Below are positions 1 through 11,183 of a stretch of 64,000 nucleotides of DNA, piece after piece. The DNA comes from an uncultured delta proteobacterium (lineage in GTDB: Bacteria; Myxococcota_A; Polyangia; Haliangiales; Haliangiaceae). The stretch is from positions 65,763 to 129,762 of the forward strand of contig CAVUQH010000024.1 in the NCBI GenBank assembly GCA_963743525.1, in the 5' to 3' direction. The notes below the pieces were generated by a model that made no database searches, was not told where the DNA came from, and saw nothing but the letters and a program-made list of their open reading frames with translations. A program made the position numbers and the translations under genes. Numbering within the stretch: position 1 is the first letter of the stretch; each line of letters begins with the position of its first letter.

Positions 1-50
1 AAAAGGGCGAGCTGCAGCTGGTTCCGCCGTAGGCGCGGCCCAGAGGTCGA

Positions 51-1326
51 TCAGCGCGCGAGGGCGTCGAGCCCGGCGCGGGCGCTGGCGCGTACGTCGG
101 AGCGGTCGTCGTCGACGGCGGCGCGGAAGTGCGCCTCTGCGTGGTCGCTGTCGCCGGCGCGGAGCTCGATCCAGCCGAGCATGACCGAGACTTCGCCGGC
201 GCGATCCGAGAACGGATGGCGGGACAGGAAGTCGCGCATGGCGGCGGCGGCGCGGCGGGTCTGGCCAGCGCGGGCACGGGCGACGGCGAGCCAGTAGCGG
301 GCATCCTCGGCCAGTGGCGCGTCGGGATCGATGCGCGCGGCGCGGGCGAACGCGTCGGCCGCGGTGCGGAACTGCTTGTCGCGCAGCGACGTCCAGCCGT
401 CGTGGAACGCCTGCTCCATCGGGCTGGCGGAGGGCGAGAGCGCGGCGGCGGGCGGCTCGGCCTGGGTGAGCGCGGGCGCGTGAGCGGTCGCGCGAGCGGT
501 CGCGTGAGCGGTCGCGTGAGTGGTCGCGTGAGCGGTCGCGTGAGCGGGCGCGTGAGCGGGCGCGGGTTCGGGCGCGGGTTCGGGCGCGGGCGCGGGTTCG
601 GGCGCGGGCGCGGGTCCGGGCGCGGGCGCGGGCTCGGGCGCGGGCGCGGGCGCGGGTTCGGGCGCGGGCGCGGGCGCGGGTTCGTGGCGCGGGCGCGGGT
701 TCGTGCGCGGGCGCGGGTTCGGCCGCGCGCGCGGGCGCCTCCAGGTCGAGGTCCCGCACCACCACCTCCTGCTCCTCGCGCGGCCACGTCTCGCCGGCGC
801 CGAGCAGGATCGTCTGCTGTCCGTGCACGTGGACCTCGGCGATGCCGCTGTGCACGGTCACGCCGACCAGCTCGTCGCCTTCGACCTTGACGTCGAAGGC
901 GCTGCCGCGCGATTCGATCTCGGCGTCGCCGGTGACCACGCGGAAGCGGTCGCGGCGCGCGACGTCGGCGACGGCCACGCTCACGCGACCGGAGCGCAGG
1001 CGCACGACCTCGTCGGTGGCGCCGTCGGGGGTCGGCTTGGCCGTGTGCACGAACTGGGCGCCGTCGGGCGCCTGCACGGTGCCGTGATGCGCAAGCTCGG
1101 GTGCGCGGGTGTCGGCCGGGCTGCGCAGCCCCACCCACAGCGCCACGGACGCCGCGGCGACCAGGGCAACGGCGGCGGGCGCCAGCCAGCGGCGCCGCGG
1201 CGACGGCGTCGGCGCGGTGGCCTCGGCTTCGGCGAGCAAGCTGCTGCGAATGGCCTCCGCACGCGCCTGCTCGAGCGGCGGATACGGCAGCTCGCGGGCG
1301 AGCGCGGCCAGCTCTTCGGCGGTCAT
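51..1326 (-). CDS. ECF anti-sigma factor (cytoplasmic N-terminus, one TM helix, FecR-like periplasmic domain, low-complexity linker, C-terminal TPR-like domain). The reading frame changes inside a GC-rich repeat array, so a frameshift, pseudogene or sequence error is possible.
   Basis: ATG at 1326 overlaps the sigma stop (ATGA). My translation reads MTAEELAALARELPYPPLEQARAEAIRSSLLAEAEATAPTPSPRRRWLAPAAVALVAAASVALWVGL (TM helix), then RLRSGRVSVAVADV...FRVVTGDAEIESRGSAFDVKVEGDELVGVTVHSGIAEVHVHGQQTILL (FecR-like), then EPAPAHEPAPA. This frame stays open to position 1 but has low GC3 downstream of the repeats. The ORF-track frame 51..419 (MEQAFHDGWTSLRDKQF...TPR-like) has high GC3 and is open up to 980. 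A +/-1 shift is therefore needed somewhere in ~480-780. Confidence 0.55.
481..720. repeat. GC-rich imperfect tandem repeat (GCGGGC / GCGGGTTCGG / GCGTGAGCGGTC units) inside the anti-sigma gene; encodes EPAPA / ATAH / RTRARA depending on frame
   Basis: Direct reading: runs of gcgcgggcgcgggttcgg and gcgtgagcggtc units, ~85% GC. Unit lengths vary by 1 nt (gttcgtgcgcgg versus gttcgtggcgcgg), which moves the frame. Confidence 0.8.
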
Positions 1327-1862
1327 GATGGCCTCCCTTCGAGCCGGCTGCGCAGGCGCTTGCGCGCATCGTGCAGCCGGCGCCACATGGTTCCTTCTCG
1401 CACTCCCAGAGCCCTGGCGGCGGCGGCTCCGGGAACGCCTTCGACGTCACACATGACGAACGCGACGCGCAGATCGTGGGGCAGTCGGCGCACGGCTTCG
1501 GCCAGGCGTTCGACCAGCTGCCCTCGCGCCGCCTGCTCGTCCGGCCTGGGCGCTCGCGGTGGCGGCACCTCGGCCAGGTCGCGCATGGCGCTGGAGCGGC
1601 GGGCCTCGCCGCGCGCGTGATGGCGGGCGACGTTGGCCGCGATCCCCAGGATCCAGCTGCGCGCCGATCCGGTGCCGCGGAAGCGCGACGACGACTTCCA
1701 CACCTCGACGAACGTGATCTGCACCAGGTCGTCCAGGTCGCCGCGCACGGGAGCGAGGCGGCCGAGGAAGCGGTGCACACAGGCCGCGTGTCGATCGAAC
1801 AGCGCGCCCAGCGCGGCCGGCTCGGCCACGGCGCAGGCGGCGAGCAGCGCCTCGTCCGACAT
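1323..1862 (-). CDS. ECF-family RNA polymerase sigma-70 factor
   Basis: C-terminal 180 aa of ORF 1323..2519: MSDEALLAACAVAEPAALGALFDRHAACVHRFLGRLAPVRGDLDDLVQITFVEVWKSSSRF (region 2) ... RLPHDLRVAFVMCDVEGVPGAAAARALGVREGTMWRRLHDARKRLRS (region 4). ATG at 1860-1862. The stop is overlapped by the anti-sigma ATG. Confidence 0.9.
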   Translation of the reverse strand: MSDEALLAACAVAEPAALGALFDRHAACVHRFLGRLAPVRGDLDDLVQITFVEVWKSSSRFRGTGSARSWILGIAANVARHHARGEARRSSAMRDLAEVPPPRAPRPDEQAARGQLVERLAEAVRRLPHDLRVAFVMCDVEGVPGAAAARALGVREGTMWRRLHDARKRLRSRLEGRPS

Positions 1863-1918
1863 CTCGCGGGCGTCGCCGACGACCCGCCGCAGCGGAACGA
1901 TCTGTCCCCGGCGCTGCT

Positions 1919-3100
1919 TCACAGCCCCACCCTCACGCCGAGGCCCAGCCAGGTGTAGCGCCCCGGCTCGCCCGGCAGCATGGTCAGCGGATCGGGCGGC
2001 GGCGGGTTCTTGCTCGGGTCGGCGCGATCGGCCGCGTACGGATCGACCGCGTCGCGGTGCGCCGAGGGCATCAGCTCGATGCCGGCGGCCAGCTCGACGG
2101 CGATGTTGTCGGTCACCGGCAAGGTCAGCGACAGCGAGCCACCCACGCGCAGACCGAGGGTGTCGTTGCCCGCGTGATCGACCGTCGTGTACGGCGCCGG
2201 CGGCGGCACGCAGTTGGGACTGGTCGGATCGCAGCAGTTGGGATCGGTCGCCGGGTCGCAGCAGCCGGCGCCGTCGGGCCCGCACGGCGGCGGGTCGGTG
2301 ATGTTGTTGGGCCAGCTCTTCTCGGTGCGCATCCAGCCCAGGCCGACCGACGCGCTCGGCGCCAGCACCGCGCGACCGACCGACACCGGCCACCTGGCAG
2401 TGGCCATCAGGTCGGCACCGCGCCGGCGGATCTGCGTCATGTTGTCTTCGGGCGCCAGCCATGAATGGTCGGCGTAGCGGCCGTCGATGCCGACACAGAG
2501 CGGGCCGGCGGCGATGCACGCGTCGGCGCGCACCGAGCGTGTGCTCGAGCCGTCGTCGCCGGAGAGAAAATCGAGTCCCGCGCCGACCGACAACCAGTGG
2601 TGCACGGCCGGTGCCTGCTGCCGAGGCACGGCGTCACTCGGCGGCGACAGGGGAGCGGCGCCGGGCGCGCGGCTTTGCTCGGCCGGCATCGCGGCAACCG
2701 TGGTTGGCGGCGCCGGCTCCGGCACCGCCAGCAGCGGGGCGACGGCGTCGTCGCGCACCCACGAGTCGATCCACACGGCGGCCATCTCGGCTGTCGACAC
2801 CCGGCGGCGGGCGTCGCGGCCGTCGGCGCCGTGCACCGTGACCTCGAGCCCGCGCTCGGCAGCGCCGACGGTCACGCGGACGGCGGCGCACGAATCGGCG
2901 GCGGCACCGACGCCGCGAGCGCGCAGAGCGCGGGCCACGTCGCCGGCCTCCGGACCGCCGGAAACCGACGCCGTCGGGGCGCCGGTCTCGGGACAACGCG
3001 ACTGAGCAGGAGCGGACGCGGCGGTCCATCCGATCGCGAACACGACCGTCGCGCACGCTCCTGTCAGCCTGCCGATCAACTCAGCTGGCCTCGCAACCAA
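1919..3100 (-). CDS. Secreted protein with cysteine-rich CGPDGAGCCDPATDPNCCDPTSPNC repeats and a predicted beta-strand-rich C-terminus (possible outer-membrane beta-barrel)
   Basis: ORF track. Signal-peptide-like N-terminus MVARPAELIGRLTGACATVVFAIGWTAASAPAQ. Internal Cys/Pro/Asp repeats related to the next gene. C-terminus has an alternating hydrophobic pattern and ends ...RYTWLGLGVRVGL. Confidence 0.7.
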   Translation of the reverse strand: MVARPAELIGRLTGACATVVFAIGWTAASAPAQSRCPETGAPTASVSGGPEAGDVARALRARGVGAAADSCAAVRVTVGAAERGLEVTVHGADGRDARRRVSTAEMAAVWIDSWVRDDAVAPLLAVPEPAPPTTVAAMPAEQSRAPGAAPLSPPSDAVPRQQAPAVHHWLSVGAGLDFLSGDDGSSTRSVRADACIAAGPLCVGIDGRYADHSWLAPEDNMTQIRRRGADLMATARWPVSVGRAVLAPSASVGLGWMRTEKSWPNNITDPPPCGPDGAGCCDPATDPNCCDPTSPNCVPPPAPYTTVDHAGNDTLGLRVGGSLSLTLPVTDNIAVELAAGIELMPSAHRDAVDPYAADRADPSKNPPPPDPLTMLPGEPGRYTWLGLGVRVGL

Positions 3101-4452
3101 AGGCAGCAGGCGGCGGGTCGATCACGCAGCCATCGTCCGGCGGGGTGCCGCACGGGGCGTTGGGGTCGGCCGAGGGATCGCCACAGTCCGGAGGAGGAGG
3201 CGTGGGATCGGGCCAGCAGATCGGATCGGTGGGGTCGCACGGTGGATCGGTGGGGCCACACCCGGCGGGATCACCATTGTCGTCGCAAGGCGGCGGCGGA
3301 GGCCAGCAGAAATCCGGGTCCGCGAGGCACGGGTCACACAGAGCCGGGTCCATCAGACAGGGATCGCAGTTGGGATCCGTCGCGTCGCAGGGCGGCGGCG
3401 GCGGCACGCAGTTGGGATCCGTCGGATCGCAGCAGCCGGAGCCGTCGGGGCCACACGGAGGCGGCACGCAGTTGGGATCGGTCGGGTCGCACGGGGGCGG
3501 CGGCGGCGGCGGCACGCAGTTGGGATCCGTCGGATCGCAGCAGAGAGAACCGTCGGGCCCGCACGGGTCGATGCAGTTGGGGTCGGTCGCCGGATCGCAG
3601 GGAGGAGGCGGCGGCACGCAGTTGGGATCGGTCGCCGGGTCGCACGGCGGCGGCGGCACGCAGTTCGGATCGGTCGGATCGCAGCAGCCGGAGCCGTCGG
3701 GGCCACACGGATCGACGCAGTTGGGATCGGTCGCCGGGTCGCACGGCGGCGGCGGCGGGGACGCAGTTCGGATCGGCCGGATCGCAGCAGCCGGAGCCGT
3801 CGGGGCCGCACGGATCGACGCAGTTGGGATCGGTCGCCGGGTCGCACGGCGGCGGCGGCGGCACGCAGTTGGGATCGGTCGCCGGGTCGCACGGAGGCGG
3901 CGGCACGCAGTTGGGATCGCTCGGATCGCAGCAGCCCGAACCGTCGGGGCCACACGGCGGCGGCGGCACGCAGTTGGGATCGAAGGTCGGGTCGCAGGGA
4001 GGCGGATCGCCGCCACCACAGCCGGGATCGGTGGACCCACCACCGCTGCCCGACGAGCCGTCGTTGCCGTCGCCACCCCAGTAGACGCCGTTGCCCAGGT
4101 CCCAGGCGCCCTGGCCGGCGCACACGTCGAAGGCGACGCGCCTGGCGCCCTGGCTGTTCTTGGTCACGAACGGATGAGCGCCGTCGGCCGTGACGACCTC
4201 GAGGCGGTACCCGGTGCCCTCGGGCACCGACAGCACATAGGAACCGTCGCCGCGCAGCGGGGCCTCGGCGATCACCTGATCGCCCTGGACCACGCGCACG
4301 CCAACGGGGCGCGAGCTGAAGCTGGAGGTGGCCAGACGCCCCGACAGCGTCTGAGTGGGTGGCGGGTCGGCGCACGCAGCGCACAGGGCCGCGGTACACA
4401 GCAGCGCACGCAGCGTGCTGGATCGCATCGCGGTCTTCATCGCGGTTCTCAT
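3081..4452 (-). CDS. Secreted cysteine/proline-rich repeat protein (signal peptide, beta-sandwich-like domain, then ~11 copies of CDP(A/T)DPNCVPPPP and CGPDGSGCCDP(S/T)DPNC, then a Cys-rich C-terminus). Requires a +1 frameshift near 3757-3761, so pseudogene or homopolymer sequencing error.
   Basis: ORFs 3334..4560 and 3081..4076 overlap and carry the same repeat in different frames. The first loses sense after ...CDPADPNCVP|AAAAVRPGDRSQ, and the second gains sense at ...SPPPPPCDPATDPNC. DNA at ~3757 reads ggcggggacgcag where sister repeats read ggcggcacgcag, an extra base in a G run. Likely start is MRTAMKTAMRSSTLRALLCTAALCAACA with RBS AGGGAGAGGA and ATG at 4450-4452. Confidence 0.7.
3390..4000. 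repeat. ~42-bp tandem DNA repeats (ggcggcacgcagttgggatcggtcgccgggtcgcacggcggc and variants) encoding the CDPxDPNCVPPPP protein repeats
   Basis: Direct reading of 3400-4000. More than 10 near-identical units. Related units also occur at ~2190-2300 inside gene 1919..3100. Confidence 0.85.
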
Positions 4453-4546
4453 TGGGTCGGTCCTCTCCCTGATTGGGGGTTGAGCAGGAAAGCGCGCGCG
4501 TCTATTGATGTAGTGCCCGCTCGCACCGGACCCTTCGCGACTTTTT

Positions 4547-5322
4547 TCAGATGCCGGCAAACTCCGCGAGATGTTGGTTGAAAAGTCGGAACCGCTCCGC
4601 CTGCATCATGTGCCCGGCGCGCGGGAGTGTGACCAGGCGCGCATCCCGAAGGTGGAGCTGCAGCGAGTCGATGGTGGCGTCGAAGTAACCGATCGACTGC
4701 TCGCCGGCGACCAGCAGCACCGGCGCCGTGACCGCCCCGAGCTCGCGGTAGCGCGGCCGGTAGCGCTGCAGCGCCAGGCAGTCGGCGCGAATGGCCCGCC
4801 ACTCGCCGGCGGCGCGCACCTGAAAGCGCGGCGGCATCCGATCATAGGCCGAGCCCAGGACCAGCTGCAGGAAGAAGGCGCCCCCGGCCTCACCACCGCG
4901 AGCGGCAACCAGCGCGTCGAACAGGCAGCCAAACGCCTGCGGCATCGCCGGCACGTCGTCGGCGCACGGCATCGGCGGCTCGCACAGCACCAGGCCGCGC
5001 ACCAGCGCCGGCCGCGTGCGCGCCAGCTCGAGCGCGACCACGGCGCCGAAGCTCGAGCCGCAGACCAGCACCGGTCCGCCGCCGAGCTGCTCTTCGATCA
5101 ATGTGGCCGCGTCGGCGGCGTGGTCCTCGACCCGATAGCCGGCCGGTGCCGGGGGCGCCGCACCGCTGCCGCGGCGGTCGTAGGTGACCAGCTCGAGCGA
5201 CGCCGCCAGCGGCGACTGCATGGTCCAGGTGGTGTGGTCGGCGGCGCTGCCGTGGATGAACAGCACCGCCGGTCCGGCGCCGCTGCGCCAGACGGTCAGC
5301 GGCGGACGACTCAGAGCCAGCC
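4547..5322 (-). CDS. Alpha/beta-fold hydrolase
   Basis: C-terminal ~255 aa of ORF 4547..6088: PAVLFIHGSAADHTTW ... VLVCGSSFGAVVALELA (nucleophile-elbow GxSxG context) ... PRAGHMMQAE. No in-frame ATG near the expected N-terminus; a non-ATG start close to the epimerase stop is assumed. Confidence 0.75.
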
Positions 5323-6320
5323 CTCCTGGCGATACCAGGCCCCGGTCTGCTGCAGCCGCTCGCCCAGGGGGGCCGCCGGCTGCCAGCCGAGCTGCTCCCG
5401 CGCCTTGTCGGTGCTGCAGATCCACGAGCCGGCGTTGGCCTCGATCATCTTGTCGTAGTTGACGATGCTCGGCTTGTCGCGCAGGCGCGCCAGCCCCTCG
5501 GCGATACCGCCGACCAGCTTGGACAGCGGCGCCGGCGTGGGCAGCACGCGCACCCGCTCGCGGCCGACCGCGGCCGCCAGCATCGGTCCCAGCTCGCGGA
5601 TGGTCGGCTGCTCGGTGGCGGCGGCGAAGTAGAGCCCCTGCCCCACCGGCGCGTCGGGCCCGGGCGCCGCCAGCCGCTCGCCGCGCTCGGCGGCGGCGAT
5701 GATGGCCGCGGCCAGGTCGAGCACGTGGACCATCGCCAGCCGCGCGCTGCCATCGCCGGGCACCGCGTGAACGCCGCGGGCGGCGGCGCGAAACAGCGGC
5801 AGCGACGCGCGGTCGCGCGCGCCGATGACCGCCGGCGGGCGGATGATCGTGATCGGCACCCGCCTGGCGTGCTCGCGCGCAGCCTCCTCGCCGCCCAGCT
5901 TGGACCGGCCGTAGCGGGACACCGGCGCCGGCGGATCGTCCTCGGTGCGCGGGCGGCCGTCGCCGCTGGGACCGGCGGCCGCGATCGACGACACGGTGAC
6001 CAGCACCGGCGGCGACTCGGCGGCGGCACAGGCTGCGGCGACCGCGCGCACGCCGTCGGCGTTGGTGGCCATGAAGTCGGCGTGCCACGGCTGCTTGAGC
6101 ATCGCCGCCAGGTGATAGACGACGTCGACGCCGGCGACCGGCGCTTCCATCGACGACGCGTCGGTGATGTCGCCGACCGCGAACGAACAGCCCAGCGCCT
6201 CGAGCGCGCTGCGATCGGAGGTCGCGCGCACCAGACAGACCACTTCGTGCCCCGCTTCGCGCAAGAGCTCGACCAGATACCGGCCGATGAAGCCGGTCGC
6301 CCCGGTGACCAGCGCGCGGG

Positions 6321-6324
<4 letters not shown>
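5311..6324 (-). CDS. NAD-dependent epimerase/dehydratase (SDR family)
   Basis: [21 protein letters not shown] Rossmann motif, 337 aa. GTG start at 6322-6324 overlaps the upstream TGA (GTGA). RBS GGGAGAGG. Confidence 0.88.
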
Positions 6325-8357
<2,033 letters not shown>

Positions 8358-8510
8358 GGCTCCCTACCTAGCGCAAAATGCCGTAATAACAAAGGAAAAT
8401 CGGGCCAATCCAGGTCCGATTCGCCGTTGCGCTTTGGCTCCCGGGAGGGTATAGAAGAGCGCTCTAAGTCGCAGGAATTCCTCAAGTTCCTGTAATCCCA
8501 GGAGACCCGG

Positions 8511-11183
<2,673 letters not shown>

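Follow-up and report, generated by a model that had tools for sequence, protein, structure and literature searches.

What do two adjacent secreted proteins, both carrying an unfamiliar Cys/Pro/Asp repeat, do directly upstream of a sigma factor of the extracytoplasmic function (ECF) type and its anti-sigma factor? The question is raised by positions 1,919 to 4,452 of a 64,000-nucleotide stretch of contig CAVUQH010000024.1, from an uncultured delta proteobacterium of the Haliangiaceae; this whole stretch is called the window below. The two genes are termed A and B, in the order of their transcription. An initial annotation, made from the letters of the window, had singled them out as a possible regulated surface module. 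The A/B pair and its repeat are real, conserved, and uncatalogued, and they lie within a recognizable ECF sigma/FecR-type system with novel outer-membrane partners. Genes A and B make up the first half of a conserved four-gene operon, translationally coupled and carried by the minus strand, behind an ECF-promoter-like motif.

Gene order and the promoter-like motif

The four genes, here called the cassette, are all located on the minus strand and are tightly packed (Table 1). Read from 4620 to 1850, this strand passes from an intergenic stretch through A and B to the ECF sigma factor gene, followed by a fourth gene that starts at 1326. A single nucleotide separates A from B, and the B/sigma and sigma/fourth-gene junctions overlap by 4 nt each. 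Overlapping stop and start codons, together with Sigma70 and FecR matches, confirm that a sigma gene and a putative anti-sigma gene directly follow A and B, as had been noted initially. The order A, B, ECF sigma, FecR/TPR protein is retained in all 10 related loci spanning the stretch (L001 and L004-L012), where B was recognized as a B-sized gene without a Pfam match; the genes flanking the cassette otherwise differ among these loci. Several matches to the A and B families also share contigs, as exemplified by the adjacent tags HOV81_44930 and HOV81_44925.

Alignment of the sequence upstream of A in seven loci revealed a bipartite motif, GAAGGGTC-N10-GGGCAC. Its sole exact match in the 64-kb window is the one ahead of gene A (Table 1). 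Each of L001, L004-L009, and L012 contains the motif exactly once, upstream of gene A at a distance that never reaches 100 nt. Four loci were fetched after its derivation; the motif is exact in two of them (L009 and L012), and a near-match occupies the same place in the other two (L010 and L011). An exact match would be expected by chance ~4e-4 times per 13-kb locus, as estimated from base composition. Matches with two mismatches at 254 and 46727 are at chance level and were set aside, the latter lying inside overlapping open reading frames (ORFs). The motif is not palindromic; taking GAA for the -35 core and GCAC for the -10 core leaves a spacer of 16 nt, which fits ECF promoters. We infer that it serves as the autoregulated promoter of the cassette, read by the cassette's own ECF sigma factor. 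A scan of positions 1-4700 for sigma-70 promoters and terminators returned nothing. The gene order common to all 10 related loci and the shared upstream motif support the earlier grouping of A and B with the sigma/anti-sigma pair.

Sequence comparison identifies the third gene as an ECF sigma factor. Its product contains regions 2 and 4 only (Pfam Sigma70_r2, 50.7 bits; Sigma70_r4_2, 46.1 bits) and matches TIGR02937 with 72.6 bits against a cut-off of 42.9. The product of the fourth gene comprises, in order, ~45 cytoplasmic residues, one transmembrane helix (WLAPAAVALVAAASVALWVGL, read from the translation), a FecR domain (29.9 bits; Pfam cut-off 24), a Pro/Ala/Glu spacer, and a TPR tail that also fits the BamD/YfiO model (30.7 bits; cut-off 25). 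Pfam detects no canonical FecR C-terminal domain in it. The helix, the FecR domain, and the adjacency to the sigma factor gene mark this protein as a putative FecR-family anti-sigma factor.

GC content is ~72-79% around the cassette, and the G+C content at third codon positions (GC3) is 0.80-0.93 in minus-strand frames, whereas the long ORFs that overlap the repeat on the plus strand have 0.72-0.75; hence, the minus strand is taken as the coding strand. On the same grounds, the plus-strand ORFs 3145..4581 and 2465..4084 were rejected as coding (GC3 0.72-0.75, compared with 0.80-0.89 for the minus-strand A and B frames).

Proteins A and B and their shared repeat

The Cys/Pro/Asp repeat stands well above chance. 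Degenerate DNA patterns for CDPxxDPNC and CDPxDPNC gave 7 and 9 matches, respectively, against 0.01 and 0.00 expected from shuffles, and all matches within the window are confined to 2210-3996 on the minus strand. The initial annotation had described more than 10 nearly identical 14-residue units in A, encoded by a 42-bp tandem array. The number holds, as A contains 13 cores, whereas the uniformity does not: 8 short units of 10-15 residues (CDPxTDPNC, then V/I and a Pro or Asp-Pro spacer) occur together with 5 long units of 21-24 residues (CGPDGSxCCDPxDPNC plus a spacer). At the DNA level, Tandem Repeats Finder does detect a period of 42 in two places, but with only 2.4 copies in each; the main periods are 103-108, 144, and 247 nt, and units are spaced 42-63 nt from start to start. 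The related units reported for gene B are present as one long unit and one extra core, CGPDGAGCCDPATDPNCCDPTSPNC.

Across the A family, the repeat Cys columns are at least 90% conserved, and unit number and spacer length vary. A variation in repeat number between strains, proposed initially as a check, is seen among close relatives, with 13 (window), 11 (L004), and 8 (L001) cores, although repeats can collapse in short-read assemblies. These differences are whole-unit insertions and deletions between near-identical N- and C-terminal modules. Genes A and B also share DNA. A 27-nt core, TGCGACCCGGCGACCGATCCCAACTGC, is identical at five sites, one in B (2234-2260) and four in A (3618-3644, 3717-3743, 3820-3846, and 3865-3891), and the direct-repeat families D1, D2, and D5 connect the region of B encoding its loop L3 to A. 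Since this identical core includes a GAT codon, which we take to be disfavored at the GC content of the window, recent homogenization of the A and B cores accounts for it better than convergence through codon bias. The identity of the cores thus suggests gene conversion between the two genes.

Protein A, 456 residues long once one base is removed, is probably a bacterial lipoprotein. Cys27 is invariant in an alignment of 51 sequences, homologue lipoboxes have the form [LA][AG][AG]C, and a lipobox-like motif was found in 96 of the 120 homologues listed; the assignment was made by pattern and inspection rather than with a dedicated predictor. The signal peptides announced for both proteins were likewise judged present by inspection, that of A being of the lipoprotein type and that of B an ordinary Sec-type sequence. 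In A homologues, the lipobox is followed by a domain of ~95 residues with the motifs YRLEV and FDVC and by a Gly-rich linker. The subsequent Cys/Asp/Pro region differs in length and style, with CDPxDPNC in some lineages and DPCLxxPxxC in others, and leads into a conserved C-terminal module ending in ...CWPxPxPPxC...PxDFGCE. Residues C412, W413, C434, F451, G452, and C453 are invariant or nearly so, and 62 of the 120 homologues listed end in [FIL]GC[EQVG], many of the others being fragments. Overall, A consists of 11.6% Cys (~50 cysteines) and 13.6% Asp.

An AlphaFold2 model of A built from 51 sequences gives the beta-sandwich (residues 33-126) a predicted local distance difference test (pLDDT) score above 92, and we count this predicted fold as established. 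The domain may be of the CarboxypepD_reg/transthyretin-like type. Residues 441-450 reach 93. The repeat region shows no regular secondary structure (pLDDT 55-86), neither the beta-roll of a rod envisaged at first nor any other. A stalk of variable length, stapled by disulfides and spaced by polyproline, is the best explanation for the repeat, because no regular structure is predicted, conserved cysteines coincide with a variable unit number, and the motif is used as a linker elsewhere (see below).

Two members of the A family have unusual structures. In P0118 (578 aa; 72-kb contig), an A-type N-domain and repeats are fused in frame to a Pro-rich linker and an anti-sigma-like TPR tail; the fusion could have arisen by loss of B, sigma, and the N-terminal part of the anti-sigma factor, or it could be an artifact of chimeric assembly. 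P0072 (338 aa; 3-Mb contig) is an A homologue with a frameshift inside the repeat.

For gene B, the TTG at 3079, one base after the stop codon of A, is the most likely start, as called in relatives, and replaces the start at 3100 assumed earlier. The AlphaFold2 model of B (67 sequences; mean pLDDT 79.9) comprises an N-terminal alpha/beta domain (pLDDT 81-97), a disordered Pro/Ala linker (residues ~115-160), and a barrel (residues 163-385) of eight strands, with pLDDT >90 over the greater part of the barrel. Each strand spans 11-19 residues and presents a hydrophobic face and a Gly/Ser/Arg/Asp face. Turns T1-T3 measure 2-7 residues, and loops L3 and L4 extend to 47 and 37 residues, respectively. 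B thereby has the structural features of an 8-stranded outer-membrane beta-barrel (OmpA/OmpX/OmpW/NspA class), including a fold match to solved proteins, and this modeled fold is also counted as established. By sequence, B falls outside the known outer-membrane-protein families in the Pfam, NCBIfam, and PDB profile searches. Loop L3, with its Cys/Asp/Pro motif, is predicted to face the cell surface, because the N-terminal soluble domain would be periplasmic and the standard topology rule for outer-membrane proteins then applies. Neither this periplasmic domain nor the placement of the motif in a predicted surface loop had been recognized in the initial annotation.

Neither protein matches a catalogued family. 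When A and B were compared with Pfam and NCBIfam, no model scored at E<=1, and the proteins lack matches to TIGR02232, TSP3, Excalibur, CarboxypepD_reg, or outer-membrane-barrel models at this threshold; we assume that the calcium-binding families TSP_3, TSP3_bac, and Excalibur are part of the Pfam library. A profile search of PDB sequences gave nothing significant for A (best E 0.1) and no match for B. The initial impression of a repeat unlike any known family, and distinct from the myxococcal TIGR02232 repeat, is consistent with these searches. Homology searches recovered 147 proteins of like architecture for A and, with a profile, 70 for B, all of them hypothetical. Named hosts are metagenome-assembled genomes labelled Kofleriaceae, Polyangiales, or Deltaproteobacteria, plus one Acidobacteriota. 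Precomputed Pfam annotations of the homologues are blank except for two incidental matches; within the A family, only the chimeric P0118 has one, to TPR in its anti-sigma-like tail. A single-protein scan of genome contigs yielded one close relative, L004, and no cultured host, and an exact look-up with the window's B protein retrieved no entry. A phmmer search with a 131-residue repeat segment against 1.84 billion representatives gave 6 matches and missed most of the A family; being insensitive for such biased sequence, it offers no basis for calling the motif rare.

The ring is also used outside the cassette, an aspect on which the initial annotation was silent. A CDPxxDPxC ring followed by a Pro spacer occurs as a tandem linker in unrelated surface proteins (P0191, P0192, P0193, and P0194). 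In P0191 (RZA37434.1), a 2205-residue DUF11 protein from a Lysobacteraceae metagenome-assembled genome, the motif follows the DUF11 domains. Another protein carries eight perfect CDPAVDPTCVPEP units adjoining its Ig-like He_PIG domain, an LPxTG-anchored protein of 241 residues carries CDPELDPECVDPDPG units, and a further example is a lipoprotein. No Pfam model covers the motif in any of these proteins.

Table 1. Features of the cassette region, in window coordinates
Feature	Position	Strand	Details
Bipartite motif GAAGGGTC-N10-GGGCAC	4513..4536	minus	61 nt before gene A ATG; putative ECF-type promoter
Gene A	3081..4452	minus	ATG at 4452, TGA at 3081-3083; frame-broken as assembled
Lipoprotein signal peptide of A	4372..4452	minus	residues 1-27 (...LCAAC); by inspection
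N-terminal beta-sandwich domain of A	4075..4356	minus	residues 33-126
Repeat array of A	3366..3996	minus	13 CDPx(x)DPNC cores with poly-Pro spacers
Run of four C	3757..3760	minus	holds the extra base behind the gene A frameshift
Cys-rich C-terminal module of A	3084..3365	minus	DPCLxDPxxC ... CWPxPxPPxC ... FGCE
Gene B	1919..3079	minus	TTG at 3079 (most likely start), TGA at 1919-1921; 386 aa
N-terminal alpha/beta domain of B	2741..2974	minus	residues 36-113; motif AAxWI(D/E)SWxRDD
Loop L3 of B barrel	2174..2314	minus	residues 256-302, between strands 5 and 6; carries CGPDGAGCCDPATDPNCCDPTSPNC
ECF sigma factor gene	1323..1922	minus	199 aa; GTG start overlaps B stop (GTGA)
Putative anti-sigma gene	51..1326	minus	overlaps sigma stop by 4 nt; frame-broken in linker repeat
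(GCGCGG)n hexamer array	470..738	minus	encodes Pro/Ala/Glu linker of anti-sigma; Tandem Repeats Finder, period 6, 44.7 copies

The surroundings of the cassette differ among lineages. In the window, the upstream region (4547-11183) encodes three neighbors on the minus strand, namely an alpha/beta hydrolase, an NAD-dependent epimerase, and, at 6321-8357, a thioredoxin-domain protein resembling DsbH/YyaL, and it contains gyrA on the plus strand at 8511-11183. This synteny is common to L001 and L004 and absent from distant loci; the epimerase of L001 (6842-7855) is split into calls of 59 and 270 residues and is a single ORF in the window. In one sub-lineage, Coq4 lies upstream of the cassette (L006, L007, L010, and L012), alongside a TetR-family gene in L006, L007, and L012. 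Downstream, an HD_4 phosphohydrolase and a Peptidase_S8 subtilase occur in L007 and L010, and a Peptidase_S8 gene also follows the cassette in L012. These flanking genes may form an extended conserved neighborhood.

Function of the cassette and status of its reading frames

The reading that we prefer, at a little less than even confidence, is that the cassette acts as an autoregulated trans-envelope signalling module in which A and B together form an outer-membrane sensor or scaffold. Lipoprotein A would contribute a membrane-proximal Ig-like beta-sandwich, a stalk of variable length, and its Cys-rich C-terminal module, the stalk consisting of disulfide-closed nine-residue rings (C-DPxTDPN-C) split by polyproline spacers. 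B would be an 8-stranded outer-membrane barrel that displays the motif in a long surface loop and tethers a periplasmic alpha/beta domain through its Pro/Ala linker. This domain would touch the TPR tail of the anti-sigma factor, and the FecR/TPR protein would span the periplasm and retain the ECF sigma factor. Upon a disturbance at the cell surface or outer membrane, the sigma factor would be freed and would then transcribe its own operon from the conserved promoter. Within such a module, the repeat would act as a rigid, length-variable spacer and not as a catalytic or ligand-specific domain. In support of this reading stand the conserved gene order and promoter-like motif, the barrel modeled for B with its short periplasmic turns and long loops, the FecR and TPR matches of the fourth protein, the linker-like behavior of the repeat, and the A-B coupling seen in the shared 27-nt core.

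A bolder proposal, which we regard as attractive but doubtful, is that the cassette represents a previously unrecognized type of cell-surface signalling. Here, a barrel and a lipoprotein would replace the TonB-dependent transducer and display a disulfide-stapled Asp/Pro ring-and-polyproline rod homogenized by gene conversion. If so, the CDPxxDPxC ring would amount to a novel stalk fold that bacterial surface proteins reuse widely. Such signalling, seen so far mainly in metagenome genomes labelled Kofleriaceae, would run from the tethered periplasmic domain to the FecR/TPR anti-sigma factor.

Several observations weigh against the signalling module. B has neither an STN signalling domain nor a TonB box, which limits the analogy with FecA to architecture, and its C-terminus (...GVRVGL) does not end in the aromatic residue of a beta-signal. 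Only ~45 residues precede the transmembrane helix of the anti-sigma factor, fewer than in classical anti-sigma domains; because this N-terminus is short, the assignment rests on position and the FecR domain. The idea that all mature cysteines of A are paired was dropped, as their count is even in only 21 of 50 full-length homologues, and thus not every Cys can sit in an intramolecular disulfide. Cognate A-B pairs do have a higher local similarity than non-cognate ones (averages of 91 and 71; permutation p = 0.0005), which speaks for the module, but this signal of co-variation is driven by two of the eight pairs, the window lineage and L005. Every named family hit comes from a metagenome-assembled genome. 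Lastly, A and the anti-sigma gene are frame-broken in the window; if these breaks are real, the cassette is dead in the window strain.

The most serious alternative assigns A and B to the output side alone, as structural proteins of the surface (for example, a stalked adhesin or a coat, with its barrel anchor) under control of the sigma factor. They would have no share in sensing, and the signal would enter via the FecR/TPR protein alone. The repeat fits this possibility as a length-variable spacer that also serves as a linker in adhesin-like proteins, and its fast-evolving style across the family is typical of exposed surface proteins. The promoter motif upstream of A makes A and B the most direct targets in any case. 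However, the four genes are strictly co-linear and overlapping in each locus, with the sigma factor always after A and B, suggesting co-production as a complex. B also retains its flexibly tethered periplasmic domain in highly conserved form, and a mere anchor would have no use for such a domain. We give this alternative a real but minor share of our confidence.

It is improbable, in our judgment, that A acts as a redox or oxidative-folding sentinel, a purposely difficult client of the periplasmic disulfide machinery whose misfolding triggers the anti-sigma factor in the manner of NlpE or RcsF, enterobacterial lipoproteins that report envelope defects. A resembles both in being a lipoprotein, and its Cys content, with conserved Cys columns, would suit such a role. 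The window and its close relatives also have a thioredoxin-domain gene 1.9 kb upstream, and a redoxin gene is found near L005. Nevertheless, redox neighbors are not kept in other loci, and a sentinel role leaves unexplained both the motif in the loop of B and its use as a plain linker elsewhere.

The frame breaks bear on a further alternative, in which the window genome carries a decaying pseudogene cluster and both frameshifts are real mutations. Gene A was initially taken as intact, and neither break was mentioned. Its span, however, is 1372 nt, no multiple of 3, and one extra C in the run at 3757-3760 breaks the frame (GTCCCCGCC in place of the GTGCCGCC of other units; in wider context, GTCCCCGCCGCC versus GTGCCGCCGCC). 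Read uncorrected from the ATG, the frame turns into Arg-rich nonsense after ...CDPADPNCVP and stops at 3334, and the later repeats and the C-terminus follow in another frame. The repeat spacings of 103 and 247 nt are correspondingly 102+1 and 246+1, and GC3 analysis places the switch at ~3760-3790. GC3 was also tried as a window-wide frameshift detector and dropped for its false positives at ordinary gene boundaries (e.g., 21703). In the anti-sigma gene, three-frame translation shows the FecR part and the TPR tail (ORF 419..51) in different frames, with the switch inside the (GCGCGG)n array.

Related loci make assembly error in GC-rich repeats the most likely cause of both frameshifts, because relatives carry both genes intact. 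Gene B proteins of L001 and L003 are 86% identical to that of the window, as is the A N-domain of L004, with the same synteny in all three. Intact copies of gene A occur in L001 (380 aa) and L004 (427 aa), and L004, L005, L007, and L008 each have the anti-sigma gene as one uninterrupted ORF. Comparable breaks affect other cassettes: L004 has two in gene B (9286-10460), the anti-sigma gene is split in both L006 (8731-9995) and L010 (5930-8759), and gene B of L010 is fragmentary as well. Seven other related assemblies (L001, L005, L007-L009, L011, and L012) are intact in all parts covered. Judged from names only, the 'contig_' names of L006 and L010 may indicate long reads, and those of the seven intact assemblies suggest short reads. 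Microflora Danica, the source project of the L004 metagenome genome, relied on deep Nanopore sequencing (PMC12313526). In 'contig_'- and MFD-named metagenome genomes, GC-rich repeats that encode Pro therefore have the look of systematic indel hot spots, and automated annotation splits or truncates cassette genes at these hot spots in apparently long-read assemblies.

Decay of the cassette in the window strain would account for two frame breaks within 4 kb, and yet it appears quite unlikely. Both breaks fall in GC-rich repeats, and the frame beyond each is fully preserved without further damage. The C-terminal module of A is near-identical to that of intact relatives, and GC3 remains high in the shifted frame. 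Like breaks in other cassette genes of L004, L006, and L010, beside the seven assemblies intact where covered, also argue against decay. Programmed frameshifting or phase variation is unlikely as well, given a run of only four C and an unshifted frame of Arg-rich nonsense.

Least probable of all is that the rings bind Ca2+ or another metal and make A and B a metal-sensing or metal-buffering surface layer comparable to thrombospondin type-3 repeats: each nine-residue ring offers two Asp and one Asn, A is Asp-rich, and a loose resemblance to such repeats was remarked initially, but the calcium-binding families covered by the Pfam scan gave no match, the DxDxDG pattern is absent, each Asp precedes Pro, which is unusual for calcium loops, and in many homologues the DPxDPNC core gives way to DPCLxxPxxC units, in which acidic residues are fewer.

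Comparison with known systems

ECF sigma factors constitute a major bacterial signalling route, and signal reception is obscure for most of their groups. Few ECF systems beyond the FecA-type iron systems have a defined outer-membrane partner. Against this background, the cassette offers a compact, conserved, and testable candidate, with two outer-membrane proteins, a tethered periplasmic domain, a TPR-tailed FecR protein, and a sharp promoter motif, in a little-studied and mostly uncultured lineage of myxobacteria. The uncatalogued disulfide-bounded Asp/Pro ring, a spacer in surface proteins of unrelated bacteria, would merit a family definition and a solved structure.

At the level of the repeat, the closest counterparts are the CDPxxDPxC linkers of P0191, P0192, and P0194, which share the nine-residue, Cys-bounded Asp/Pro ring with a Pro-rich spacer, in tandem, in secreted or wall-anchored proteins. 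Unlike the repeat of A, these linkers connect Ig-like domains or precede an LPxTG anchor and do not belong to an A/B/sigma cassette. The shared ring may reflect either common descent or convergence. Thrombospondin type-3 and bacterial TSP3 repeats are likewise short Asp-rich tandem units stapled by disulfides, as we suppose for A, whereas the CDPxTDPNC motif of A has no DxDxDG, places a Pro after each Asp, and gave no Pfam match at E<=1.

In the TraA/TraB operon of Myxococcus xanthus, a surface protein with a region of Cys-rich repeats is encoded alongside a partner (PMC3325183). As in the cassette, a myxobacterial operon thus combines a Cys-rich-repeat surface protein with a second protein. 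TraA carries the TIGR02232 repeat, a PA14-like domain, and a MYXO-CTERM anchor, and the Tra system functions in kin recognition without an ECF sigma factor. Protein A, in contrast, has no TIGR02232 match and would be anchored by an N-terminal lipid, and the cassette includes an ECF sigma factor.

Among ECF systems, SigX-CfrX-CmpX-OprF of Pseudomonas (ECF102) differs in its mechanosensitive channel and OmpA-like peptidoglycan-binding domain, both missing from the cassette, and in sequence; the cassette, for its part, has a different anti-sigma type and an added lipoprotein. ECF267 is described with a protein kinase conserved in its vicinity (Casas-Pastor et al. 2021, PMC7826278). The flanks of 11 loci showed no such kinase, and membership of the cassette in ECF267 is only a lead.

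FecA-FecR-FecI (ECF groups 239-243) provides the nearest overall parallel. In that system, the barrel has a plug, a TonB box, and an STN domain, whereas the cassette barrel is 8-stranded and shows none of them (no Pfam match). The cassette anti-sigma factor also differs, with a Pro-rich spacer and a BamD-like TPR tail in place of the FecR C-terminal domain (Pfam), and the cassette has an extra lipoprotein and places its outer-membrane genes first. Both systems co-encode an ECF sigma factor, a single-pass FecR anti-sigma factor, and a barrel with a periplasmic N-domain, and autoregulation is plausible for the cassette too. Although it fails the TonB-dependent transducer/STN feature by which the FecA type is defined, the cassette is architecturally closest to FecA-FecR-FecI.

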